Below, in pieces: positions 12,026-53,971 of a stretch of DNA of 64,000 bases. The notes beneath the pieces were generated by a model that did not search any database, was not told the origin of the DNA, and saw only the letters and a program-made list of their open reading frames with translations. Both the position numbers and the translations under genes were made by a program. Each line of letters starts with the position of its first letter. Position 1 is the first letter of the stretch. The DNA is taken from the NCBI GenBank assembly GCA_000165345.1, contig CM000433.1:512001-576000 (forward strand), in the 5' to 3' direction.

Positions 12026-12370
12026 TAATTATACCATTATTTTTTCATCTTTTACAATATTTTCTTATTCAATCCTTTTTTAACTCACACATATATATGC
12101 TTATTCATTAATCTGATGATAAATTTAAACCATTTAATTAATAATTTACACATTATTTCATCTTCTTTAATAAGCTAACTTATAATTTTTAAATATTCTT
12201 CCATTTTATCCTCCACATTCTTCAACTATTCCCTCTAATATATATGTTTGTTTAATTATAATTATCTATTTAATTCATTAACATTTTAATACAAATATTT
12301 TCCCTCCAAAATTGGTAATTTATTATTTTGCATGCATTGCCATCTTTTTTCTCCTTATGACAACCTCTAT

Positions 12371-12397
12371 ACCGGTCACTGTTGGCGCCAACACGTC
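12371..12397. promoter_or_regulatory. ACCGGT + TTGGCGCCAA (E2F-like palindrome) + CACGTC, about 170 bp upstream of DUS3
   Basis: Motifs seen directly. Confidence 0.45.
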
Positions 12398-12556
12398 ACC
12401 TTTGAAATTTATATATAAATAGTCAAATTTGTTGAATTATTGAAACCCAATTTAAATTAAAAATAAACTTGTTAGGTAAAAGAAGGTGTATAAATTACTT
12501 TATAAAAAGCTGGAATTGGAATTCGGGATTTTAGGTCATTATAACTCTGAAAAAAT

Positions 12557-14680
12557 ATGGGGGAACCATCCAATGAAATCCCAATAGATTCAGAAAGAAG
12601 GGACTATGTAAAAAAATGTATAGAAAATAGTGAAGCCCCAATAATGATGGAATACTTGAGTCCTTTAATATCATCGAAATGTCAGAATGAGACTGGAATT
12701 TCAGAAGTGAAAAAACTGAAGGAAGACCAAAATGAAGCCAATTCTTCAAAGAAAAGAAGTATTAGAGGATCTTTTAAAGCCAGTGAGAGGTCTCAAAATC
12801 TGAATTATATTGCAAAAATGGATGACTTAGATCGTCTTTGCTCAAATATTGCAATTTTTGGAGAATGTAAGCTTGATCATAATACTTGTAAAAAAAGCCA
12901 CAACATTGAAGAATTCTTAAAAATTAAACGTGAAGAAGCTGAATCGAAAATTCGTGATCATGAAGAATCTCTTCTAATTCAAAAGTCATGTCCTCTTTTT
13001 GAAAATTATGGAATTTGTCACCTTGGACTTAATTGTGAATTTGGACTTTCACATTTTAATGAATCTATTATGGCAAATGTTAACAGTAAAGGTGAAAAAG
13101 TTACTCCTGAGCATCTTGAAGAATTCTTTAATTCATTTGAGAAGAATACTATTGATATCCAATTAAGAACTGGGTTAAGAAAAAAAACGATGAATTTTCC
13201 TAAAACCAAAGATTTTTTTGATAATTACGCTTTAAGTACAAATAAAACTTTAAAAGATTGTGAAAAAAATAATCCAAAACCAAATTGTAAAAAAGCCCAA
13301 AACTTTGACAATCCCTTATTAGTAGGTTTAAAAAACACTGATAACTCAACATCTCTTGATGAAAAGGGCCCAAAGACTATTACTGAAATAAATAATCAAC
13401 CAAATATTGAAATACAACAAGAATTAAAGCTTTCAACTGAAGATATGCTGATTGGAATCTCCATACATGAAAAAGAAAAATGTAAGCATAAAATCTTTAG
13501 AAATAAACTCATCCTTGCTCCACTTACTACCGTTGGAAATCTTCCATTTAGAAGACTTTGTTTAAAATTTGGAGCTGATGTCACTGTAAGTGAAATGGTA
13601 TTATGCAATGAAATCCTTTCTGGGAAAGCTTCTGAGCTTGCATTACTTAAAAAAAGCCCAGAAGAAAAATATTTTGGTATTCAACTTGCTGGTGGTAACA
13701 AATCTACAATTATTAAAACTGGTGAATTCATTAATGAGCATTGTGAATTTGACTTTATTGATATTAATGCTGCTTGTCCATTAAAATCTCTTCATGATAA
13801 AGGCGCTGGAAGTATACTTGTTGATCGAGTTTCAGAACTTGAAACTATGGTTAAAGGGCTTAAAAAAGTTATGGATGGTAAACTTGTTACTGTCAAAGTT
13901 AGAATGAGTCATGGAGGATCACCTATTAATAAAAATCTTTCTGAAAAGGATTACTTTGAAAATTTTGAAAACTGGCCAGTAATTTACCACAATATGAAGA
14001 CTCACAAAATTTTAAATATTCTTTGTGACTCTGGAATTGATGCTTTAACTATACATGGTAGAACTTCATTCCAAAGATATACCAAAGAAGCTGATTGGTC
14101 CTATATTAAATATTGTTCAGTATTAAATTCCAAATTATATTCAAACAAAGTTGTCAATAATATTCAAAATAGTAATCATTCTCTTATTTGTCCTTCAATC
14201 ATTGGATGTGGGGATATTATTAATTTTCAAGATTACCAACAACATATCCAAAATGATCTTGTCGATTCTGTAATGATTGGAAGAGGAGCTTTACTAAAAC
14301 CCTGGATCTTTACTGAAATCAAAGAAAATAGGAATTGGGATATTTCTGCTAGTGAGAGATTTGATATTATCAAGCAATATGTCAATCTTGGACTAGAACA
14401 TTGGGGTACCGATAAAAGGGGAATTGCGCTTACTAGAAGATTCCTACTTGAATTTCTTTCATTCTTCCACAGGTATATCCCAATTGGTATTCTTGAACAG
14501 CCTATTCATACTCAAAACTTTAATTGGAGAACACCCAAATATATTGGTAGAAATGATCTGGAAACTATGTTAGCATCAAGTAACTCTAGTGACTGGATCA
14601 AAATCTCTGAAATGATACTCGGAAAAGTCCCCAGTGATTTTGTTTTTATCCCCAAACATAAAGCCAATAGCTCCCATTAA
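12557..14680 (+). CDS. DUS3: tRNA-dihydrouridine synthase 3-like (DUS3) with N-terminal CCCH zinc fingers
   Basis: CCCH fingers (CSNIAIFGECKLDHNTCKKSH; CPLFENYGICHLGLNCEFGLSH) precede a DUS TIM-barrel (LILAPLTTVGNLPFRRLC...GADVTVSEM). Confidence 0.85.
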   Translation: MGEPSNEIPIDSERRDYVKKCIENSEAPIMMEYLSPLISSKCQNETGISEVKKLKEDQNEANSSKKRSIRGSFKASERSQNLNYIAKMDDLDRLCSNIAIFGECKLDHNTCKKSHNIEEFLKIKREEAESKIRDHEESLLIQKSCPLFENYGICHLGLNCEFGLSHFNESIMANVNSKGEKVTPEHLEEFFNSFEKNTIDIQLRTGLRKKTMNFPKTKDFFDNYALSTNKTLKDCEKNNPKPNCKKAQNFDNPLLVGLKNTDNSTSLDEKGPKTITEINNQPNIEIQQELKLSTEDMLIGISIHEKEKCKHKIFRNKLILAPLTTVGNLPFRRLCLKFGADVTVSEMVLCNEILSGKASELALLKKSPEEKYFGIQLAGGNKSTIIKTGEFINEHCEFDFIDINAACPLKSLHDKGAGSILVDRVSELETMVKGLKKVMDGKLVTVKVRMSHGGSPINKNLSEKDYFENFENWPVIYHNMKTHKILNILCDSGIDALTIHGRTSFQRYTKEADWSYIKYCSVLNSKLYSNKVVNNIQNSNHSLICPSIIGCGDIINFQDYQQHIQNDLVDSVMIGRGALLKPWIFTEIKENRNWDISASERFDIIKQYVNLGLEHWGTDKRGIALTRRFLLEFLSFFHRYIPIGILEQPIHTQNFNWRTPKYIGRNDLETMLASSNSSDWIKISEMILGKVPSDFVFIPKHKANSSH

Positions 14681-18800: not shown

Positions 18801-18825
18801 TTGGCGCCAAAGTTTGCGCATGCAT
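18801..18825. promoter_or_regulatory. TTGGCGCCAA + GCGCATGCAT in the convergent gap between the large hypothetical gene and the CPSF6-like gene
   Basis: Motifs seen directly. Confidence 0.4.
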
Positions 18826-22278: not shown

Positions 22279-23217
22279 ATGAAGGAGGATGAAGGAATAC
22301 CGGAGCCAACAAACTTAGGAAATGTATCAGCATCTCTTGAAGACTTGGAGGAAAACTTTGAGGGAAGTAATATAGTGAATAAGAGTTATACCCAGAGAAG
22401 AAGGTATGAGATGTGCAAGAATGGAGACCTGGTGGTTTTGTTTGGAGGATACGAAATGGTTATACAGGTCTTTCTGGAACAAAATGGAAGAACTCAGACT
22501 AGAAATGGGGTCTTCTTACATAATGAGATTATTGGGAAGAATTTTGGAAGTCGAATATTTGATACATCCAAATCAAAGTGGATGGTAGTTTTGAAACTTT
22601 CTCCTGAACTTATCTCAATTTCCCTCAATCATCGTACCCAAATACTCTACCAAGCTGACATTTCATTAATATGTGTGCTCTTGGATGCATCCCCTGGAAA
22701 AAACATTATTGAAGCTGGAACTGGAAGTGGATCTCTTACTGTTTCACTATGTAGGTCAACAAATCCTGGTGGAGCTGTTTATACTTTCGAGTATGATCAG
22801 AAACGCCATTTGGAATCTATCCAAGACTTTCAAAAATATGGTATTTCCAATGTTGTCTGCCAGCATAGAGATGTATGCAAGGATGGCTTTATATCTCCTC
22901 TTTTAGATATTACGAAAACCACTATTCATGGAATTTTTCTTGATCTTCCCTCCCCATGGATTGCCATTAAACATGCAGACCAAGTTCTTCAAAAAGGAGC
23001 AAGTATTGTAATTTTCTCGCCATGTATCGAACAGGTATCCAAGAACTGTAATGAACTTAACTTACTCAAATATATCCATATAAGAACTTTTGAAGTACTT
23101 TATAAACCTTGGGGAATTGTTAGAGGATCTTCAAAAAAGTTCCCTACAAAAGGTCTAAGGTATCAACTTCCAATGAGAGGCCATACAGGTTATTTGTCTT
23201 TTGCTATTAAATCATAA
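22279..23217 (+). CDS. TRM61: tRNA (adenine58-N1)-methyltransferase catalytic subunit TRM61/GCD14. Coordinates are from the first ATG; the ORF opens at a TTG at 22258.
   Basis: Strong alignment to human TRMT61A: RTQILY..DIS, EAGTGSGSLT, FLDLPSPW, FSPCIEQV, GHTGYLSFA. Confidence 0.85.
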   Translation: MKEDEGIPEPTNLGNVSASLEDLEENFEGSNIVNKSYTQRRRYEMCKNGDLVVLFGGYEMVIQVFLEQNGRTQTRNGVFLHNEIIGKNFGSRIFDTSKSKWMVVLKLSPELISISLNHRTQILYQADISLICVLLDASPGKNIIEAGTGSGSLTVSLCRSTNPGGAVYTFEYDQKRHLESIQDFQKYGISNVVCQHRDVCKDGFISPLLDITKTTIHGIFLDLPSPWIAIKHADQVLQKGASIVIFSPCIEQVSKNCNELNLLKYIHIRTFEVLYKPWGIVRGSSKKFPTKGLRYQLPMRGHTGYLSFAIKS

Positions 23218-28082: not shown

Positions 28083-28350
28083 ACAATTTACAAACATTTC
28101 AATTCGATTATTAATTTTGTGTTGATCCAACCATCATTACTTCCCTAATTTTTTTTTCACTTCTTCTATTCCCAGTTACAATGCATTCACTTGGATATTC
28201 TGCATACAAACCTTCTCTTAAAACTTAATTTCAAACTTTATTTTTTTCTCGATTTTTATTACTATTTAACTATCTTCTCTTTCTTTTGAATAATTTGTAC
28301 ACATCCTAATTGCATGCGAATTCTTCTACAACTGCTTCTATTTGCAATAT

Positions 28351-28419
28351 GCATGCATTTTTTATTTATTACGTGTACTATTTTTTATGATACCCCACAT
28401 CTTGGCGCCCAATGACGTG
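28351..28419. promoter_or_regulatory. GCATGCA ... TTGGCGCCCAATGACGTG cluster upstream of the Yip1-domain gene
   Basis: Motifs seen directly. Confidence 0.4.
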
Positions 28420-28831
28420 TCAATTATAAGAAATAAATAATTTTTTTTGGGATATTAAAATTTGAATAATTAACTGAACAAGCGGATTTTTTCTTTTTAA
28501 AAGATCAGATTAGTTTGGAGAAGGAAAATAATAAGAAGGAAATAACTATTTCAAATTTCTATATACTTTTTTTGTGGCCAAATTTAGTAAAAAAGAAATT
28601 CAGATTTGCAAAAATACTTTAATTCAACTAAATCAGCAATAAAAACAAAAAAAAAAAGAGGATACAAATTGCCATAATAAAATTTTTTAATTAAACTCCT
28701 CTTTCCTAAAAGGAATCTCTGTACAGGACTAACTATAACATTTTAAAACTAAGCAACTTTGAAATCTTACTATTGTAAATTCTCCTATTCTCTAGCCTTT
28801 ACTATTTATTAATCAGCTCATATTGTTAATA

Positions 28832-30140: not shown

Positions 30141-35000
<4,860 letters not shown>

Positions 35001-38419: not shown

Positions 38420-41119
38420 ATGGGTCTCAAATTTTCCACAGTTTCGTTGGCATTTGCTGCATCACTGTTTACAGTGCAAGCTGTAATAATGTACCTTTGG
38501 ATGTATCAAGATACTTTCTTATTTTTAATGTTTTTAATAGGAGACATACCATTACTAATGAACTTTTTGCTCAGAAGACACGAGTCAAATAGTGCTATTT
38601 CTGGAGGTCTTCAATGGTTTTGGTATAGTTTGATATTAACCCTTAAAATGGTTTTTTTAGTTTGGCACAAATCATTTGATACCCATGCAAATACAACGCT
38701 TATAGATAGATTACCATATACACTGTTTCCCTCTTCAATCATCCCAACAATATTATTCATTACGCCAGCAATTTATATTCTCCTGTCTTTCAGAGCTGCT
38801 CCACAATTATATGGCTCACCTATTTATGTGCTTTCAACAGAAAGTTTATTACACTCAGATTTGGTTACGCATGTCCTCTTAGACTTAATTGATATACTTG
38901 TTCAAATGCAACATGAGCAGTACCCAGCAAGTCTATTAATACATTCAACTTGGATTTATATGTACTCAGGTATTGTTTTAACTTTGGTATTGTTTTTCCA
39001 TGGTCTATCATTTCCAACAAGTGGAGGAGAACCAACTATTTCTCAAAGGCAGGGCGGGGATGTTTATATAGTAAGAAAGCACGCAGCTTTGGTTGGTATA
39101 TTTCTTGTTGACATTCCTCTATTGATCCTTAGAACATATATTTGGCTTCATTTTCCAGTATTTCCAGGGTTTAATCCATGGATTATGAAGAACATATTGT
39201 TCATCCCATTACAAATTGTAAGGTTAAACCAATGCAGGCTTGCTGAGAAGGAAAGATCTCATAAATCCCAAAGAGAAAGCTTCTTCTCAAGCATTGTAAG
39301 TAAAGATGAAGCAAGAAGTGGCTCGATTATTAAAAGAACTATTCTTCCATATAATTGTCAACAGCCTCAGGTGACACATAGTAAGCGTTCTGAAACCAGA
39401 AATAATACAATGGAGCTTCCTTTGATTCAAAATAAAGATGATTTTAGCGATCATTTAAATTTGAGCTCAGATAACATTAGCTCGAGCTTAAATAATAATT
39501 CATCCCAATTTAAAAATAATTTCCCATCAAAAAATGAAGGTTCTAGTATGCAAAATATTGGTAGCAATAATTTTTCAACTGGAAATATACAGAAATCCTT
39601 TAATATGAGTATTAGACAAAGAATCCCAAATAACGACGAAATTGGCTACCAAGAAAATGCTTCAGGACAATTTTCTCAAAATTTTTCAAATAGGAATGAC
39701 CATTCGAGCAAAGAAGTTGATTCTACAATTAAAAGAAACTTTGACCACATAATTAAAGATATTAATTCAACTAGAAAAATTCCAGCTCGAAGTTTTTCTC
39801 TTGGGACGATTTTAAAGCAGATCATTTTCATGTTCCAAAGAAGTGGCCAATCTTCATATTTATCTTCAATTCTCGATAACACCTTGAATGTAACTCAATT
39901 CCAAAATATCAGGCTTTCTCTTGCACTTATAATCCCTCTAATTTCCCAAATTGCACTTTCTGTGGTATGTAGAACACCAGAACAAGGTGGAATGGAAGTT
40001 CAATGTAATTTGAACTGGTTTTTCCCAAATTTAACTGAAGAAGGTGGATTTTATAAAATGAAGTGCAATGCAACTTATATTTCATTTATGTGTATTAACT
40101 TTGTCTCATACAACCTATTGTGGTTTGGAATGACAAAATACTTTGAAGTCTTTTGTGGGGCAATTTACCAACTTGTAATCTTTAGCTCCTATTTCTTTGT
40201 AGTTCACAGCATAAGAAATGCAAAGTTTGTTGATCCTTTTCTTTCTGGGGTCAATATGGATATTGGGAATATTTTGGTTTTACTTTGCGTTTGCCCCGCA
40301 GTCCTTACCCTACTATTCAATTATTTCCCTCTATCTAGTGCCTTTCTCGGAAGAAAACATCTCAGACTTGCAACTCCATTTTCAAAAAAACAGTGGATTG
40401 TAAACAAAATTCCTGTTAACACTGAGCAAAAGAACCAAGAAATCGAAATTAACAAGATTCCAAACGAAAGTAAAAGTTCCAGAGATGATGAAGTCGGCTA
40501 TCTTAATATTGGATCTTGTTTGCTTCTTTTAAATTGCAGATTTGGAATTGCCCCAGTAAGCATGAACGAGCTTCTAATTGGTCCTGATACAATCAAAGGA
40601 ATCAGACTTATTGACCTTCTATTGTCTACTTTCTATAGAGACGTTTTATTCATTTTCGTTACCAGAGGCATTTTACTTACACTTTGTTTTACATGGGCAT
40701 CTCTTGGAGTATTTGTTTCGCACATAACTTTCATGATTTTCTATGGAATTACTTCCCATACTATCAGGCTTCTTGCACTCAGAAGATTTGAACTCAAAAT
40801 CTTATTTCAGAAGATTCTTAGAGATATTGTTAAAGAAGATACCATCATCCCAAATTTCTCCAACCAGTCTTCAATTATTCTTTCCAACTTCAACCAATTA
40901 TATAGAAATGAAGAATGGAAAAATTCTAGTCTTCAACAGTCATTCTTTAAAGACAAACAAGCTTCTATTCAACACAATGAACTCTTGCAAATTATTAACC
41001 AAATCTCCCTCCCCTACATTTCTCACAACAATATAGTCAAGAAATACTCTTCTTCAGGATTTTTCTCTTCTCCTGGGAATATTTTACTTCCATATACTAT
41101 TGGAACTATTCCTCTATAG
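38420..41119 (+). CDS. Hypothetical multi-pass transmembrane protein with a low-complexity N/S-rich central loop
   Basis: 899-codon ORF from the ATG, with many hydrophobic helices at both ends. Confidence 0.55.
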   Translation: MGLKFSTVSLAFAASLFTVQAVIMYLWMYQDTFLFLMFLIGDIPLLMNFLLRRHESNSAISGGLQWFWYSLILTLKMVFLVWHKSFDTHANTTLIDRLPYTLFPSSIIPTILFITPAIYILLSFRAAPQLYGSPIYVLSTESLLHSDLVTHVLLDLIDILVQMQHEQYPASLLIHSTWIYMYSGIVLTLVLFFHGLSFPTSGGEPTISQRQGGDVYIVRKHAALVGIFLVDIPLLILRTYIWLHFPVFPGFNPWIMKNILFIPLQIVRLNQCRLAEKERSHKSQRESFFSSIVSKDEARSGSIIKRTILPYNCQQPQVTHSKRSETRNNTMELPLIQNKDDFSDHLNLSSDNISSSLNNNSSQFKNNFPSKNEGSSMQNIGSNNFSTGNIQKSFNMSIRQRIPNNDEIGYQENASGQFSQNFSNRNDHSSKEVDSTIKRNFDHIIKDINSTRKIPARSFSLGTILKQIIFMFQRSGQSSYLSSILDNTLNVTQFQNIRLSLALIIPLISQIALSVVCRTPEQGGMEVQCNLNWFFPNLTEEGGFYKMKCNATYISFMCINFVSYNLLWFGMTKYFEVFCGAIYQLVIFSSYFFVVHSIRNAKFVDPFLSGVNMDIGNILVLLCVCPAVLTLLFNYFPLSSAFLGRKHLRLATPFSKKQWIVNKIPVNTEQKNQEIEINKIPNESKSSRDDEVGYLNIGSCLLLLNCRFGIAPVSMNELLIGPDTIKGIRLIDLLLSTFYRDVLFIFVTRGILLTLCFTWASLGVFVSHITFMIFYGITSHTIRLLALRRFELKILFQKILRDIVKEDTIIPNFSNQSSIILSNFNQLYRNEEWKNSSLQQSFFKDKQASIQHNELLQIINQISLPYISHNNIVKKYSSSGFFSSPGNILLPYTIGTIPL

Positions 41120-41341
41120 TATTCTCCCATATCTCTTATATGCTCATTATATTGCAGCATTAATTGATTTTATACTTATATATTTTTTTTAGTATTCAAA
41201 CATTTATTCACTCTCTTTTTTTAATATTTAATTCGTATTATTATCAATCAATAATATTTTTTATTCAAACTCTACTCTTAAAATTCTATCCTTTACTATT
41301 TATTCCGCTTCCACATGCAAAAATTCTCAATTCCTGTCATT

Positions 41342-41417
41342 GCATGCAAATTTTATGCAAACCATTTCTTAATACCGGTTTATTATTAACATTTAGGCGC
41401 CAAGACCCAGACACGTC
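41342..41417. promoter_or_regulatory. GCATGC + ACCGGT + AGGCGCCAA + CACGTC module 60-130 bp upstream of the U6 snRNA
   Basis: Motifs seen directly. Confidence 0.45.
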
Positions 41418-41446
41418 ATTATGAAGTTAAATAAAGTTTTTTTTAA

Positions 41447-41454
41447 TATAAAAA
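41447..41454 (+). promoter_or_regulatory. TATA-like element (TATAAAAA) about 20-25 bp upstream of the U6 snRNA start
   Basis: Sequence and position relative to the U6 5' stem. Confidence 0.5.
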
Positions 41455-41466
41455 CTGAAAGGTTAA

Positions 41467-41582
41467 GTGTTGGGTTCTCCTTGCGGGAACCCGATTCTAA
41501 AATTGGCTTTAAAAACAGAGAAGATTAGCAAACCCCTGCGTAAGGCTGGTTTCATTCGCCGAAAGGTATAACCAATTTTTTT
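41467..41582 (+). ncRNA. U6: U6 spliceosomal snRNA (Pol III; terminates in a 10-T run)
   Basis: Exact CUAAAAUUGG, ACAGAGAAGAUUAGCA and CCCCUGCG..AAGG blocks match human U6. It has a 5' stem-loop gggttc...gaaccc and a T10 terminator at 41576-41585. The 5' end is uncertain by about 5 nt. Confidence 0.85.
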
Positions 41583-41925
41583 TTTCCTTTATTTTTTTTA
41601 TTACAAAAGATAAACTAGGCTCATATGTTAAGTGATATATTCTTCTATGTATACCGGAATCTATTTTCAGGTTCTGAATTCAATCAATGAACTATTATTT
41701 CTAATCCAAAAAACCATAAAAACTTAGATAAATGCTAGAATTTTATCCTTTCTAGATCATACATGAAATACTAAGCTATGATTCTATAGCAAAGCTCGTT
41801 ATATATCCTTTATAGCTATTAAATTTTAACCTTTTCCTAATTTATATTTGTCTCTGCTAGACGTGACATGAAATATGTCAATTTAACAATAATTAATTGA
41901 TCTGAAACTTCCAACATTTTATAAA

Positions 41926-44900
41926 ATGGAAAATGATACGAAAATATGTGGAGTTCAGCCATTAAGCTCACTAAAGCCTATTAACTCTGTTTTGGCAATT
42001 AAACTTCGAAATATTGATCTTATTTTAGCAGGATTTGGAAATGAGCTGAGAATATACTCCCAAAACTTTGAAACAATCTACGATCAATTAGTTTACCACG
42101 ATTCTCATAATATTTATGGGATAAAATATGGTGAGTTAGATGATTTAGTTGCTATATATGGTCTTAACAAAGTTGTTTGGTGTCGTATACATATTCAGGA
42201 ATCACAACAAGATATCTCCGACTCAAAATGTCAGAAAATTCATTCTATCAAAGTTGGAGAATTGAACGAGTATGATCTTTTCCTTGAATCTTGTAATTAT
42301 CTTAAAGGAAAATGGCTAATTGGAAGTTCTACTGGCAAAATAAGGCTTTGTCAATTTGAACAACAAACCCAAGATTATATCATTCCTAAGATTCAAAATC
42401 TTATCATCCCTCAATCTCCAACTCTATATTGCATGAAATTTCATATACTTACTGATTCTGAAGAAGTCATGATTGTATCAGGATCTGCTTTCTCTACTGT
42501 CAATGTTTCAATATTAACCATTAATAAAGAAAGTATTATTCAGGAACAAATCCTTAAAGCTCATAATGGAGTTGTATATGATCTCAAGATTATAGGAGAT
42601 GGATCTGGTATTCTATCTTCATCTGATGATAGAAAGATTATTCTTTGGATGAAAGAAGAAAATTGTCTAGAACTTTCTAAAAATACTCAAAAGTTCCGAT
42701 TCTATCCTAAATATATACTAATTGGGCATGAGGCTATTATATGGTCCATAGATACTTTATGGGAAAAAGAACTAATAGCATCTATTTCTGAAGATGGAGA
42801 TCTATTTATTTGGAATCTAAAAGAAGTTAAATCAAAATCTTATGTCAATATAAATGGTAATGATATACAATGTATTAATGGTCCTAATTCAAAAGTATCA
42901 AAAGCTCATCAAGGAAGAGGAGGAAGAGTTATTCATTCTATGTCTCAATTATTAGAAAATAATAAAAATTATTGGTCTTTTATTACTGGAGGAGAAGGAG
43001 GAGATTTAAAAGTCTGGAAATTTTTTATAGGATATGAACAAACTAATATTGAAGATGACAAATTTGAGTTAACTTGTGAAGATGATTATTTTGCATTTTC
43101 AGAATCGAAAATCTCTCCAGATATAAATAACCAGCCGGAAACTAATGATTCAAATTCTATTTGGTATCAAGGAGCTCATTTGATAGATCAATCTAAACTT
43201 ATTGGAGTTACCAGACAAGGAATTCTAAGCATTGGGATGAAATGTTCTCAAGGTTCATCACATGAGTGGGAAAGTATTAAAATTCATGATTTAGGAGATT
43301 TGGTGTATTCAATGTCTTCTTTAGATAACGGACATTTAGTTCTTGGATCTTCCAGAGGGAAAATTATACATGGACTAGTAAATTTAATTAAAAATGAAAT
43401 GGAAGTTAAAAATGAGCTTTTCTTGCCAAATTGGACAGAAAATATTACTTTTGTCCAGTATTTTACTATTATAGAGAATGAACTTTATCTTGCATTTTCT
43501 TCATGTTCTAAAGGATTTGTTGGAGCTTCAGTATTCCACAAAATTGATCACAATTCAGAAGATGAATCCACTAATCCATGGATTACGTCAATAGTACCAA
43601 TAAAAGGAACCCCAAAATATGGAGAATTAAAATGTTTGGATATTTTTAAATATAATAATAATACTCAAGGTAAAATAGTATGTGGAACAGTAAGTGGAAA
43701 CATATTTATATTGAATTTCAAAGTTTTAAAAAAAGAGGTTAGTCAAGATAGACTGGGGATTAGCTCGATTTCTGATGGATTAGATACTATTATAGAAATT
43801 TGGTTATCTAATGTATTAAGTGCTTCTCATAAGGGGAATGTCTCAAGTCTTAACTGGATTAATGATTCGAACAATAATTTGGTATTTCTATCAACAGGTC
43901 AAGATGGCAAGATTAATCAGTATTCAGTGAAAGATGAAGCTACATTAGAATGGTCACATAGATGGAATTCCCAGTGTGAATATATAGTTAGATGTTTTAA
44001 GTTGAATAACAGTAATTGGTTAATAATAGGAGCAGTAAAACATGAGTTATTCTTTTACTTAGCGAAGGAAAATGTTACATCTACTCCAATATTATTATTA
44101 ACACATAAATTTGGAGGAATTAAACGTTCATTCCAAATTAATATAAGAAATTATAATGATAAGGATCTTTTGGAAGTGATTTGGTGTCAGAAACCATCAA
44201 TTAGGATTGATCAATTGAATATTAGAAAGATTTTAGAAAGTCAAAACTTTTCAAATAATTTCCTTAATCCATTATTAATGACAAAGTGTTTAAACGTGAA
44301 TCCTCCTTCAAGGCTAATTCATTCTTCAGCTTGGATGAATAATAATATAGTAATTTTTGGAGGGGAGGACCATATTGTAAGATTTTATGATGTATCAAAC
44401 CCCTCAAAAATGTGTTTAATACATTCAATTAGGCTTTTAGATCCTATTAGAAGGCTTAAAGTGGTAAATATAAGAGAAAATGTTGAAATTTTAATGATAA
44501 CAGGTGGGAGACAAATGTTTCATATGTTTGAGATTAGAAAAGAAAGGAGTGAGAGTGATATTGTGATAAAGACAATTTTTTCGAATAATAATGACAAGAA
44601 ACAGAATAATTGTAGATTTATCTCACTAGATTATGTAATTGAACCAATTTCAATGGGTGAAAATTATAAGTTGATTGTAATTGTAGGTTCGAGTAAAGGA
44701 GAAATATTGATATTTTCTTTCCAATTATTAGATTTGGGAGAAAAGTTGGAATTTAATTTGAAGAAAATTGTTACTTTTGGTTTACCTTTTGTACCTTTTT
44801 CAATAAGAGCGGAAAATGATTCAGGAGAGATTTTGGTGCTTGTGGGGCTTTCAAATGGGAGCATTAAGGTACTCAAGAGTAGAAATTTAGGAATATCTAT

Positions 44901-47887: not shown

Positions 47888-50341
47888 ATGGGGAGGATAA
47901 GGAAATTATCTGATGAAGTTATATCCCGAATTGCAGCTGGTGAGGTAGTTGTGAGCCCATCTCATGCACTGAAGGAGCTATTGGAAAATAGCTTGGATGC
48001 AGGTTCAAGGAATATTATATTACAATTAAGAAAAGGAGGAATTCAAAGTTTGCAGATATCAGATGACGGCTCTGGGATAGATAAGAATGACTTTCCAATG
48101 TTGTGTGAGAGGTTTGCTACTAGTAAATTAACAACAATGAAGGATATTCAATCTTTGAAAACTTTTGGATTTAGAGGGGAAGCATTATCAAGTATAAGTT
48201 TTGTATCTCAATTAAGTATAACGTCTAAGACAGAAATGTCAGATTGTGCATACAGAGCATCATTTTCAGATGGGAAGATGATTTCAGAATTGGAAGAGGT
48301 AGCTTCGGCAAAAAGAGGAACAATTGTCCAGATTAATGATCTATTTTATAACATGCCATCAAGGCAAAGAGCAATGGGTTCAGCTTCAGACGAATATGCT
48401 AGATGTTTGGACTTAGTTCAGAAGTATTGTATAGAGTTTCCTGAAGTATCTTTTAATGTGAGAAAATTTGGTCAAAATACGAATGATTTGAGGACAAATG
48501 GTGGAGTAAAAACGAGAAAGAATGTAATAGGTTTGCTATATGGCTCAAATGTGGTTAAAGAATTAATACAGTTTACAGTTTCAAGGGATTCAGAGAGACC
48601 AAGAGATTTAAATAAAGAAAAAAGTAATGAATTAAGTTTAAAAATTCCTGATTTTTCAGCAGAGCTGTATATTTCGGGATTGGGATATAATCCAAAGCAA
48701 AACACCCTGATTATATTTATTAATGGAAGGTTAGTAAAGAATAATGCAATCAAACAGGCAATAGAGACAGCTTATCAGTATACAAAGTCAAATTATTGGG
48801 CATTTGTATCAGTAAGAATACCTTCCGAAACAATAGATCCTAATATTCATCCAACAAAGAATTTGGTTTATATTAGCCACGAAACTTTAATTTCAGATGC
48901 AATACAAAGGAAAGTAATGTGTTCTCTTCAGGCTTCTAATTATTCAAGAAACATGGTCTTGGAAAGGAAACCAAGACTTGAACTTAAGGATTATTCTAGT
49001 TCTGGTGAGACAAAATCAAACTATATGGACTCCACAAAAAATGTAACAAGAGTCAGAACTGATTCAAAACAGCTAGTTTTGCAAGAGTATTCATCTAATA
49101 GTATATCGAAACATTCAAATATTTCTCTAATTACTATAGAAAGTAAACAAGATAATTCCAATGGTATTGCTAAGAATGTTCAATGTTCTTCAATTAAACC
49201 CAATGGAGGCGAAGAAAACTCAAAAGAAGAGGTGAAATTAAGTGAGAAAGATCACCAAAAACTTCAAAATGGAGATAATGAAGTACTAGAACATAGTTTT
49301 AACTTAAATAAAAGCTCTGAAGACCAAACAAATGAGAATTTTCGAACCAAATTGTATCACCCGTCAACCTCAGAGAATTCACTAAAAAATAAACAAATCT
49401 TTAGATTATTTGATATATCCAACTACGCTATGGATGCTCATGTACTAAGTTGGTCTCTGACTAATGATTCAATCCCATTAATCAAGGAAATGAAGAACTT
49501 TCAAACGAAAGTGAAACAAAAGTTTCTAACAGAAATTGAGATTATGAATGATAATACTGAAGCCTCCAAAATGGAGTACTTAAAAAGTCTAACAAAGAAT
49601 ATTATTAATGGGATTTATATTGGACAAATAAAATCTTCTTGGTCTATTATACAAGCAAAAAACCAAATTTTACTGATTAATATTGAACAAATGTCCAAAA
49701 TAGCCTTAAAACAATCACTTATTTGTAGACTTGGATATATCCCACTATTGAAATTGAACCCTCCAGTAAGCCTAGGAGAACTCTCACTATTTGGAACTGA
49801 AAGTGTTAAAAATTACAAATTAAATGAGAACGACCAGATTCAGCTCAAAGATTTTATTAATAGTCAAGCTTATTTGTATTTTGATATTCTAAAAGTGCTT
49901 GGGATAGATTTCGATTCTTCAAACAACTCTTTCTCAACACTTCCCCTATTTTTTGGGAATTTTGTTCCAAATATAGATTTTTTACCGGAATTATTTGAAC
50001 ACGTCATCTTTGCATGCTGGAATTTCCACATTGCGCATGCATGCAAACAAAAATTATTAAATACCGGTAGTGCACAAATTTTAAATCCACATTTTAATGA
50101 GGAAAACAACTGTTTATCAGATAAAATAAGTGAAGATTATATTATAAAATTATATGAGCTATTTATTGAATTGATTGAAATATTGGTGGATTATTACCTA
50201 TTTGGTATTGAAGATAATGAACTACTTTTTCAAGCTATAAGAAATAATAACAACTTGATCCTTGTTGAGGATCAGATTTCTCAGAACATTATTGAGCTCT
50301 CAAGTCTAGAGAAGTTATACCGAGTCTTTGAGAGATGTTAG
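47888..50341 (+). CDS. MLH1: DNA mismatch repair protein MLH1 (MutL homolog)
   Basis: The N-terminal GHKL ATPase matches (IRKLSDEVISRIAAGEVVVSPSHALKELLENSLDAG; FGFRGEALSSIS). The C-terminus ends ...YRVFERC, as in MLH1. Confidence 0.9.
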   Translation: MGRIRKLSDEVISRIAAGEVVVSPSHALKELLENSLDAGSRNIILQLRKGGIQSLQISDDGSGIDKNDFPMLCERFATSKLTTMKDIQSLKTFGFRGEALSSISFVSQLSITSKTEMSDCAYRASFSDGKMISELEEVASAKRGTIVQINDLFYNMPSRQRAMGSASDEYARCLDLVQKYCIEFPEVSFNVRKFGQNTNDLRTNGGVKTRKNVIGLLYGSNVVKELIQFTVSRDSERPRDLNKEKSNELSLKIPDFSAELYISGLGYNPKQNTLIIFINGRLVKNNAIKQAIETAYQYTKSNYWAFVSVRIPSETIDPNIHPTKNLVYISHETLISDAIQRKVMCSLQASNYSRNMVLERKPRLELKDYSSSGETKSNYMDSTKNVTRVRTDSKQLVLQEYSSNSISKHSNISLITIESKQDNSNGIAKNVQCSSIKPNGGEENSKEEVKLSEKDHQKLQNGDNEVLEHSFNLNKSSEDQTNENFRTKLYHPSTSENSLKNKQIFRLFDISNYAMDAHVLSWSLTNDSIPLIKEMKNFQTKVKQKFLTEIEIMNDNTEASKMEYLKSLTKNIINGIYIGQIKSSWSIIQAKNQILLINIEQMSKIALKQSLICRLGYIPLLKLNPPVSLGELSLFGTESVKNYKLNENDQIQLKDFINSQAYLYFDILKVLGIDFDSSNNSFSTLPLFFGNFVPNIDFLPELFEHVIFACWNFHIAHACKQKLLNTGSAQILNPHFNEENNCLSDKISEDYIIKLYELFIELIEILVDYYLFGIEDNELLFQAIRNNNNLILVEDQISQNIIELSSLEKLYRVFERC

Positions 50342-53027: not shown

Positions 53028-53971
53028 TCTTTCCAATTTTTATTACTGCTATTGCCTGCTTTTTGAAGTATTTAAACGTAATTTGACTAGTTTGGACTGA
53101 CTAGCTATGCTTTGAATATTATTTATATATGCTCGTAATTAAATCGTTTTTTTTCTTCATATACACCACATTAATATTTTACACAATTAGAGTACGTACG
53201 CACACACTTTCATAGAATTAAATTCACAATAAATATTCAAATAAATTTAAATGCAATAAAGTATAATTATCTATTTCATCAGCATTCCTCTAAATACATA
53301 GAATTATCTGTTTAATTTGGTAAATAGCATTTACAATTCCTTTTAAAAAGAAAATAGTCTGAATTTAAGTCTCTTTTCGATCCTAGAATCTCAAAAAAAT
53401 ATTTCTGTATTGTATATTAAAATTTATTATAAATATTAAAGCCAATGGGATTCGAACCCAGCTGCGCTTTTGCCGTTTCTTTTTTCTGCTCCCTATTACA
53501 ATAAACATGTAATAATAGTTCAAATTACATGCAGCCGGCGGGCGCAAATTGGCGGGAACTGTCTCAAATTTTTATATTATTCAGGTTCGAGCAAGGATTA
53601 GGGAAAGAAAGTGAAAGGAAAGAAGAAAAGGAGGAGATTACACTTTAGACAATTTGGATTAGTTTGAAGAGTAGTTTGCTTATGAGAGGAATTGAGAGAT
53701 TATAGACTGTGTGAGATTTTTCTTTTTTCAAAAACAATACAAATATTAAGTTTTAAGGTTTATTATTAAGTTTTAGTGGTGATTATAACTATTCAAAAGA
53801 AAACAGAATTGGCTAAATAAAGTTTTGACAGAAGATATTTAGGAAAAGTTGGTAGTAATTTGCAACTTTTGAGTACTGTAGTAGTAATTTTCCAAATAAA
53901 CAATTAAGCCAAGTCTTTATTCAATTAGTTAATAAGAACAGTTTACAATTATATTATTATGATGGCTGTAA

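Follow-up and report, generated by a model that had tools for sequence, protein, structure and literature searches.

The U6 snRNA gene of Cryptosporidium parvum and its conserved upstream elements: a probable type-3-like Pol III promoter with sites resembling Pol II promoter motifs

On sequence evidence, the locus at 41472–41585 (+ strand) of the 64,000-nucleotide stretch analysed in this study, hereafter the window, was confirmed as a genuine U6 spliceosomal snRNA gene of Cryptosporidium parvum. With a probability of roughly 0.6, we consider that the gene is functional and transcribed by Pol III from a type-3-like promoter lying wholly upstream, in which a fixed basal core is combined with more loosely spaced, shared activator sites. 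The U6 promoter is already a CRISPR tool, and the gene was therefore known before; resolving the architecture of its promoter adds a modest new detail, which brings no surprise and overturns nothing.

Searching with the Rfam covariance model RF00026 gave a match at 41473–41580 (+) with 62.2 bits (gathering threshold 44, E = 2.7e-13) covering model positions 1–105 of 105, so the original prediction of a U6 gene at this place passed the covariance-model check. It was the sole Rfam match in the whole window at E <= 1. The same two genes flank U6 in eight Cryptosporidium species, among which the gene is nearly invariant, and the orthologous loci scored 55.8–63.4 bits with RF00026. For the orthologue search a 1159-aa protein was used instead of the RGG/RRM protein, which is of low complexity and returned two matches only. 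No further snRNA gene was found in the window or in the orthologous loci compared, and scans of metagenomes beyond the genus revealed no match to the Cryptosporidium-type U6 cores. The identity and conservation of the gene are observed directly, as are the positions and conservation of the elements upstream of it.

The RNA begins with a stem-loop of 8 bp (41472–41492, + strand; fold −12.8 kcal/mol, z = −3.3). Since this hairpin begins at G41472, the start of 41467 in the original prediction is about 5 nt too early. An 8-bp hairpin was present in four species (e.g. stem GGGUUCUC/GGGAACCC versus GACUCACC/GGUGAGUC), differing stem sequences giving the same structure in a Logan species of 86% identity and in C. 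andersoni, and RNAalifold detected compensatory pairs in it. The +1, predicted at G41472 or G41473, was placed from the RNA model and the hairpin, and all element offsets are counted relative to 41473. The ACAGAGA box and AGC triad, ACAGAGAAGAUUAGCA (41515–41530, +), were read directly and are invariant in 8/8 species. The gene ends in a run of ten T residues (T10; 41576–41585, +), read directly as a Pol III terminator, at which transcription would end; a T-run of 6–12 nt was found in six of the seven other species, and C. ubiquitum has T7. Both features lie where they had been predicted, as does the TATA box, and TATA plus T-run bear out the Pol III reading that was proposed with them.

The region directly upstream contains zero indels from −60 to +1 across the eight species. 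The TATA box TATAAAAA (41447–41454, +) occupies −26 to −19. TATAAAA is found at −26 in five species and an A/T-rich variant at −26/−27 in C. xiaoi, C. ryanae and C. andersoni, giving a TATA-like box at −26/−27 in all eight. Conservation further delimited a candidate PSE/USE-like element at 41411–41437 (+), composed of ACACGTCAT with the core ACGTCAY at −60, GAAGT at −50 and AAAGT at −40; ACGTCAY begins 34 bp upstream of TATA. Six species have ACGTCAY at −60; variants with one or two mismatches stand at −60 in C. felis (GCGTCAT) and at −61 in C. andersoni (CCATCAT), so that all eight have a form of it. GAAGN occurs at −50 in six, and AAAGT or AAGGT at −40 in seven. The offset of this proximal block is the same in seven species and shifted by 1 nt in C. 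andersoni.

When −82 to −15 was aligned, identity reached 72% with 18 invariant columns, versus 47% column identity in a neutral control, the 300–400 nt spacer from U6 to the next gene, where the sole conserved element adjoins the ATG of that next gene. The distance from the upstream stop codon to U6 (159–365 nt) and from U6 to the next ATG (307–401 nt) are both variable. As the distances from the elements to U6 are steady while those to the flanking genes vary, the elements appear tied to U6 and not to its neighbours.

The CACGTC hexamer at 41412–41417, noted originally as one of four motifs, is by our reading of the alignment really part of ACGTCAY. Judged by position and conservation alone, ACGTCAY together with GAAGN and AAAGT, two blocks that had gone unnoticed, may behave like a PSE or USE. 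The plant USE consensus RTCCCACATCG itself is absent from −40 to −80 of U6. In the promoters of protein genes, too, sequences of the ACACGT(CA) type adjoin E2F-like sites, with no constant order or orientation; therefore the ACGTCAY of U6 might instead be an ordinary activator site that is immobile in a short promoter.

Further upstream, the conserved elements are placed more flexibly. The nearest, at −77 (41396–41403, +), is the E2F-like site GGCGCCAA, which reads TTGGCGCC on the opposite strand and matches the published motif 3 DTTGSCGCCH; the minus strand of the site, read as TTGGCGCCT, fits this consensus. The core GCGC[CT] was found at −73 to −76 in 8/8 species, the site of C. andersoni being TTTGGCGC and starting at −80. 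An E2F-like factor may bind at GGCGCCAA.

We also considered whether a SNAPc-like complex binds the whole stretch from GGCGCCAA to AAAGT (about −78 to −36) as a single long PSE peculiar to the lineage, in which case the likeness to the E2F motif would be coincidental. The stretch is the best-conserved upstream part in all eight species and covers the −40 to −70 zone of PSEs, and SNAPc has been reported in most eukaryotes (PMC10887745). However, the spacing from GCGCC to ACGTCAY varies by up to 3 nt and the E2F-like site appears flipped in C. andersoni, which argues against one rigid complex. Moreover, most promoters in the window carry the generic motif, with which GGCGCCAA is identical; a PSE of 43 bp would be long; and we found no report of SNAPc for Cryptosporidium in the literature. 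We regard one extended PSE as rather improbable, and prefer a proximal element with a separate E2F-like site.

Three more elements follow. The element ATACCGGT at −101 (41372–41379, +) is ATACCGG-like in 5/8 species, at −93 to −113, and absent from C. xiaoi, C. ryanae and C. andersoni. At −132 lies TGCATGCA (41341–41348, +), an AP2_1-type motif; the site, TGCATGCAA, is identical to the published motif BGCATGCAH, and a CATGC or TGCATG core is present at −123 to −137 in seven of the eight species. An octamer-like ATGCAAAT at 41344–41351 overlaps this AP2_1 site, a curiosity only. The distal element CCACATGCAAA at −162 (41311–41321, +) corresponds to CCACATGYAAA, which is kept at −162 to −171 in the four closest species. 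A similar GCTTCCACTTGCAA was seen within a conserved block upstream of a YIF1-like gene. TTCCACATGC, at about −163, is the one string that resembles the plant USE, and was rejected as such for its wrong position and for being kept in four species only.

Both the E2F-like motif and AP2_1 are published generic promoter motifs of C. parvum, the E2F-like motif being overrepresented in 114 of 200 expression clusters (PMC3734150). Open chromatin at 5′ ends likewise has E2F as its top-ranking motif (bioRxiv 10.1101/2025.01.17.633476). In the window, GGCGCC was 14-fold denser in intergenic than in coding DNA. An E2F/AP2 motif pair was also seen at 18803–18823, between convergent genes, where no annotated gene starts.

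GCATGC (41342–41347), ACCGGT (41374–41379) and GGCGCC (41396–41401) were all found at their predicted positions, and so was CACGTC. For this set the original prediction had offered a choice, either activators shared by Pol II and Pol III genes or a PSE-like role. We infer both, for different motifs, and the either/or form is not kept. GGCGCC and GCATGC, published Pol II motifs, would behave as shared activator sites, since both are kept upstream of U6 while their spacing is flexible; ACCGGT is found in only 5/8 species; CACGTC, within ACGTCAY at about −60, would take the PSE-like role.

The resemblance to Pol II motifs allows another arrangement, in which the TATA box, perhaps with ACGTCAY in its ACGTCAT form, alone serves U6, while the E2F-like site, ACCGGT and TGCATGCA are the regulatory region of a Pol II unit. 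The unit might be an antisense or unannotated transcript, or the WD40 gene that lies 450 bp downstream, and U6 would simply be nested in its promoter region, the genome being very compact. In this genome the motifs are indeed those that are standard at Pol II promoters, and in no species is there an E2F-like site between U6 and the WD40 ATG, so that the WD40 gene may depend on an upstream site. The YIF1-like gene shows that a conserved block can sit some 420 nt away from an ATG, and the pair at 18803–18823 illustrates that these motifs may occur away from annotated gene starts. On the other side, the distance between GCGCC and U6 stays within 3 nt in eight species, whereas the distance from GCGCC to the WD40 ATG differs by about 100 nt among them; a conserved element of its own precedes the WD40 gene, about 65 nt ahead of the ATG; and a Pol II transcript would need to cross U6 and the T10 run. 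We therefore judge it unlikely that these sites belong to a Pol II unit in this way. The E2F-like, ACCGG and CATGCA sites could still serve the WD40 gene or an unannotated Pol II transcript besides U6 or instead of it.

The motifs are clustered beyond chance, even inside intergenic DNA. Over the whole window we found five clusters with at least three motif kinds per 100 bp (0.058 expected) and two complete four-motif clusters (0.0004 expected). When only the 17.9 kb of intergenic DNA was considered, three clusters with at least three motif kinds remained (0.20 expected, P = 0.0005), and the two four-motif clusters were set against 0.003 expected, with 0 of 50,000 permutations.

The four-motif set other than that of U6 lies upstream of a DUS3-like gene (12329–12399, +, located by motif search; ATG at 12557). 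There the motifs (12330–12397) are in the same order as at U6 with a different spacing. Only CATGCA and TTGGCGCCAA of this block are invariant in four species, and its CACGTC was found in none of the three other species compared, not even the closest, C. meleagridis. The DUS3-like cluster is followed neither by a T-run nor by a conserved block resembling an RNA. The YIF1-like gene has its conserved block some 420 nt upstream (28310–28424, +), nearly invariant in five species; besides two copies of TGCATGCA it holds TTACGTGTAC and TTGGCGCCCAAT, together with a G-box in reverse and ACACGTCAT in inverted orientation; the cluster in it (28312–28419, outside long ORFs) is without ACCGGT and has CACGTC inverted. 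The two remaining clusters of at least three kinds, at 31509 and 50000, are inside long ORFs.

These comparisons bear on the claim that one composite module had been copied between U6 and protein genes, which does not hold: the spacing differs at the DUS3-like gene, the YIF1-like block has one motif inverted, and the motifs are not conserved together. A profile of the U6 proximal block found U6 promoters only (46–63 bits), with nothing else above 9.6 bits in 190 kb. A single conserved module of the same order and spacing is not supported by this profile search or by the DUS3-like and YIF1-like comparisons.

Several other candidates were tried and rejected. The cluster at 31509–31554 in the UCH ORF is not a module, as in C. 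canis only GGCGCC is kept, inside a conserved coding stretch. Other small RNAs behind the other motif clusters were sought with Rfam (E <= 1) and ARAGORN, which gave nothing besides U6. As a structured RNA the YIF1-like block was discarded, since RNAalifold paired only the TGCATGCA palindromes mutually (with the C. canis segment misplaced), and as a small ORF too, because it holds only short ORFs of 22–35 aa with no sign of coding. Lacking a convincing RNA fold and signs of coding, it was taken as regulatory DNA. A scan for sigma-70 promoters and intrinsic terminators is irrelevant to eukaryotic DNA and was uninformative.

It might also be supposed that the motif cluster is due to chance or hitch-hiking and plays no role, with U6 driven by TATA and intragenic sequences in a yeast-like manner. 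The invariant U6 body leaves room for intragenic control elements, and A/T-rich genomes yield many TATA-like strings (42 TATAAAA sites in the window). Yet the upstream blocks stand at fixed offsets genus-wide while the neighbouring spacer is unalignable, and the clustering statistics speak against chance. No downstream B box was found: searching 39034–43862 for GGTTCGANNCC with at most two mismatches gave no match. Downstream of U6 there was no conserved block except the WD40-proximal element. Guide RNAs, moreover, are reportedly driven by upstream sequence alone (PMC7448269). A cluster without any role is accordingly very improbable.

The arrangement we favour has two parts, a division which, like the pairing of factors with elements, we infer from sequence. 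The basal promoter would consist of the TATA-like box at about −26 and the lineage-specific proximal element at −62 to −36. The latter (ACGTCAY −60, GAAGN −50, AAAGT −40) would correspond in function to the PSE of vertebrates or the USE of plants, and these elements keep constant distances to one another and to the predicted start site. The putative activator sites are spaced more loosely: every species has the E2F-like GGCGCCAA at about −75, and subsets of the species have ATACCGG, the AP2-type CATGCA and CCACATGCAAA farther upstream. Most likely they are activator or open-chromatin sites common to Pol II and Pol III genes, and they may act like Oct-1/Staf in the vertebrate DSE or like the GC-rich MSP in monocots. 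The conservation of the E2F-like motif at this place suggests that the dominant Pol II promoter motif of the parasite operates at a Pol III gene.

To our knowledge, Cryptosporidium is the only apicomplexan genus reported to retain E2F/DP. We might speculate that U6 is under direct E2F control through the genus-wide GGCGCCAA at −75, and that ACGTCAY is a lineage-specific PSE for a divergent SNAPc-like factor which also stands beside E2F sites at some Pol II promoters, as in the ACACGT–E2F pairs. This is a tentative and, in our estimate, unlikely extension; if true, one activator pair would coordinate the supply of spliceosomal RNA with the main Pol II programme of the parasite.

CRISPR work in Cryptosporidium relies on the C. 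parvum U6 promoter for every guide RNA. Guides are inserted behind this Pol III promoter, presumably that of the present locus (PMC7448269). Footprinting across species suggests that about 170 bp contain all conserved elements, and that the genus-wide core is about 80 bp, with the E2F-like site, the ACGTCAT block and TATA. The footprint points to minimal or cross-species promoters and to bases that should be left unaltered, and is a first map, open to testing, of a type-3-like Pol III promoter in an apicomplexan.

Two of the known U6 systems fit poorly. Yeast SNR6 combines TATA with an intragenic A box and a downstream B box, and trypanosomatid U6 depends on an upstream tRNA gene; both resemble the Cryptosporidium locus in that a TATA-like box precedes a U6 gene transcribed by Pol III. 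A promoter of the SNR6 type was rejected, there being no B box within 2 kb, and the trypanosomatid type likewise, as the window contains no tRNA gene (ARAGORN; Rfam).

Plant U6/U3 promoters are closer. In plants the gap between USE and TATA is three helical turns for Pol III, and in monocots a GC-rich MSP is found upstream of the USE (PMC9845283). The Cryptosporidium promoter is likewise compact and entirely upstream, with an element about three helical turns before TATA (near −26 to −30) and a GC-rich auxiliary directly upstream of that element (GGCGCC −75, ACGTCAY −60, TATA −26). In sequence, however, ACGTCAY is unrelated to the USE RTCCCACATCG, and the GC-rich element is an E2F-like palindrome and not RGCCCR.

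In human, the PSE lies 40–70 bp upstream and the TATA box specifies Pol III (PMC9652321). With vertebrate type-3 promoters the Cryptosporidium promoter shares the gene-external layout, a Pol III-specifying TATA and an element whose place between −40 and −70 is fixed. Upstream activator sites used also by Pol II genes are a further likeness, to judge by the title of PMC3499247, and Pol II-type activity near U6 genes has precedent, to judge by that of PMC2082468. The two differ in that the activator sites are at −75 to −165 in Cryptosporidium versus −170 to −250 in vertebrates, and are E2F-like and AP2-type versus Oct-1/Staf.

The cited studies of C. parvum promoter motifs analysed protein-coding genes, with snRNA genes and polymerase III unmentioned (PMC3734150; bioRxiv 10.1101/2025.01.17.633476). 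At U6 the sequences are the same as these generic Pol II motifs, but the gene that follows them is transcribed by Pol III, and their positions are tied to its start site. Lineage-specific upstream elements together with activators common with Pol II genes are the rule for animal and plant U6.

The window is AT-rich (32% G+C) with densely packed long open reading frames, and the U6 gene with its upstream motifs is located inside an 806-bp gap between a TMEM121-like gene (38420-41119, + strand) and the downstream WD40-repeat gene, which starts at 41926 (+). The 899-aa TMEM121-like product is identical to C. parvum EAK87974.1 and QOY41686.1 (CPATCC_002267), and its orthologues in named Cryptosporidium species show 54-89% identity. 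The Rfam U6 model spanned 41473-41580 (+) end to end with 62.2 bits, over the gathering score of 44, and was the sole match in the 64-kb window; no other Rfam family was found there at E <= 1, and no tRNA genes were found. G41472 is the first base of the 5' hairpin, and the T-run at 41576-41585 (+) is composed of exactly ten Ts. The original prediction had described a U6 gene ending in ten Ts, preceded by a TATA box and GCATGC, ACCGGT, GGCGCC and CACGTC motifs, and all these elements were confirmed in place.

Seven orthologous loci (C. ubiquitum, C. canis, C. felis, C. xiaoi, C. ryanae, C. andersoni and a Cryptosporidium species from a Logan assembly) were compared, and every one contained a U6 match in the same intergenic gap (55.8-63.4 bits). 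The RNA body from CUAAAAUUGG through the terminator did not vary among the species compared. The 5' hairpin keeps 8 bp although its strands differ: C. parvum has GGGUUCUC/GGGAACCC, the Logan species GGGUCUCC/GGAGGCCC and C. andersoni GACUCACC/GGUGAGUC, which indicates genuine covariation. The U6 gene is real and ancient.

With the footprint anchored at the U6 start (41473 = +1) in eight species, the upstream region splits into a rigid zone and a flexible zone. The rigid zone (-62 to -19) contains ACGTCAY at -60 in six of the eight species (C. felis has GCGTCAT at the same offset, and C. andersoni has CCATCAT at -61), GAAGN at -50 in six, AAAGT/AAGGT at -40 in seven, and a TATA-like box at -26. 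Five species have TATAAAA as this box; the others have TTCAAAAT, TTTAAAAT or TTTAATTT. No indels were found between -60 and +1 in the eight species; from -18 to -1 the length is fixed and the sequence is not conserved. The -82 to -15 block showed 72% identity with 18 invariant columns.

In the flexible zone, content is conserved and position is not fixed. All eight species carry GCGC[CT] at -73 to -76; ATACCGG was found at -93 to -113 in five and CATGC at -123 to -137 in seven, and the four closest species have CCACATGYAAA at -162 to -171. A single long PSE may span the whole region from -78 to -36, but this is opposed by the 3-nt spacing variation and by the flipped site of C. andersoni, whose E2F-type site reads TTTGGCGC, the same consensus on the opposite strand. 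Two sequences upstream of U6, ATGCAAAT (41344-41351) and ATGCAAAC (41356-41363), resemble the octamer found in the distal elements of vertebrate snRNA genes; the likeness is probably coincidence, because they overlap an AP2-type TGCATGCA site.

The U6-WD40 spacer, used as neutral control, was essentially unalignable (47% column identity). Its lone conserved element, GTCTC..CTAGACRTGACA, is located ~65 nt before the WD40 ATG. In the window this element reads GTCTCTGCTAGACGTGACATGA (about 41850-41871); it is kept in seven species and partly in C. andersoni, its CACGTC hexamer reads GACATG in most species, and it probably belongs to the core promoter or 5' UTR of the WD40 gene. Distances from the neighbour genes to U6 differ by 100-200 nt among species, and therefore it is to U6 that the upstream elements are tied. 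Alternatively, the distal sites may serve a Pol II unit, for example the WD40 gene, which lacks its own E2F-like site, but the positional tie to U6 opposes an exclusive role of this kind. Chance origin of the upstream motifs is excluded because of their conservation.

Two of the four hexamers are already published and are among the best-known C. parvum promoter motifs: GCATGC is AP2_1 (BGCATGCAH), to which the cgd2_3490 AP2 domain binds, and GGCGCC is E2F-like motif 3 (DTTGSCGCCH), for which 114 of 200 co-expression clusters show overrepresentation (PMC3734150). E2F is also the leading motif of open chromatin at 5' ends (bioRxiv 10.1101/2025.01.17.633476), and 11 of the 13 GGCGCC sites in the window are intergenic, mostly at gene starts. 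The strings ACCGG and ACGTC are absent from the text of the PMC3734150 motif paper and of the ApiAP2 binding-specificity paper. Each hexamer is 4- to 14-fold enriched in the 17.9 kb intergenic DNA of the window, and their clustering is non-random: three intergenic clusters combined three or more of the motifs (0.20 expected, P = 0.0005), and all four motifs came together twice in intergenic DNA (0.003 expected). The four clustered CACGTC sites in the window all extend to RACACGTCAY (0.28 expected). ACACGT/ACGTGT, which the published survey of C. parvum motifs does not mention in its text, is intergenic at nine of ten sites (1691-1756, 12391, 28371, 28415, 41411 and others), and four of the nine intergenic sites have an E2F-like core no more than 20 nt away (0.67 expected, P = 0.003).

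A single module common to U6 and protein genes, as originally proposed, was contradicted by spacing, conservation and profile search. Orthologous DNA was compared at the two best comparison loci, the DUS3-like promoter and the block upstream of the YIF1-like gene. Of the motifs in the DUS3-like promoter (12329-12399), CATGCA and TTGGCGCCAA alone are unchanged across four species, with TATACCG kept in three; CACGTC is missing from all three other species, including C. meleagridis, the closest relative compared, and the start-to-start distance from GGCGCC to CACGTC is 8 nt versus 16 nt at U6. The YIF1-like upstream block (28310-28424, +), strikingly well conserved in five species ~420 nt before the ATG, has no ACCGGT, an inverted ACACGTCAT abutting the E2F-like site, and the extra elements TTACGTGTAC and a reversed G-box. 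A profile built from the U6 -82 to -15 block and searched over 190 kb of window and loci gave 46-63 bits for the U6 promoters, and no other sequence exceeded 9.6 bits. The cluster in the UCH ORF was rejected as a module, not being conserved as a unit.

Other sites were also observed. The ~130 nt around the YIF1-like block (28300-28425, +) are nearly invariant in five species, with counterparts at about 23030-23160 (L017) and about 22815-22945 (L015), and are conserved even in C. canis, where the flanks are unalignable. They contain TTGCATGCAAAT, GCTTCCACTTGCAA, TGCATGCA, TTACGTGTAC, TACCCCACA (the reversed G-box), TTGGCGCCCAAT and GACGTGTCAAT; the distance from the ORF is unusually long for so compact a genome, and the block may give rise to an unannotated transcript or to a long 5' UTR. 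An E2F-like site paired with GCATGCA at 18801-18825, between convergent genes (3' ends 18763 and 19274), is conserved in C. canis (L014 13120-13160), there also with ACACGTCAT abutting; such a promoter-type cluster without an annotated gene start could point to a transcript that is antisense or unannotated. At 49998-50068, within the final 340 nt of the MLH1-like ORF (47888-50341), AACACGTCAT and ATACCGGT lie clustered with three GCATGC sites, which may be coincidence. A perfect tRNA-type B-box consensus, GGTTCGAATCC, is located at 53448-53458 (-) in an E2F-rich divergent promoter region (53037-53971), and neither ARAGORN nor Rfam revealed a tRNA or other RNA there.

The U6 gene is already known, alveolate U6 genes having been catalogued (PMC5028923), and the C. 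parvum U6 promoter is in routine use as a tool. Two features appear to be new: a proximal element with rigid spacing throughout the genus, and an E2F-like site located in a promoter for Pol III. No paper was found that treats snRNA promoter elements or SNAPc in apicomplexans.

The U6 promoter is probably gene-external. Both yeast-type control (downstream B box) and trypanosomatid-type control (upstream tRNA gene) were excluded, as no B box was found within 2 kb and no tRNA gene in the window. In type-3 promoters, the PSE is located 40-70 bp upstream and the TATA box specifies Pol III (PMC9652321); in plants, the USE lies three helical turns from a TATA at -28/-30 (PMC9845283). The C. parvum ACGTCAY begins 34 bp before the TATA, and since this geometry fits documented type-3 promoters, ACGTCAY-GAAGN-AAAGT plus TATA may be read as the basal Pol III promoter. 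The E2F-like, ACCGG and CATGCA sites would be activator sites that U6 shares with Pol II genes, the factors themselves being putative. Monocots carry GC-rich MSP enhancers directly upstream of the USE (PMC9845283); in C. parvum, the GC-rich E2F-like site is located 13-16 bp above ACGTCAY.
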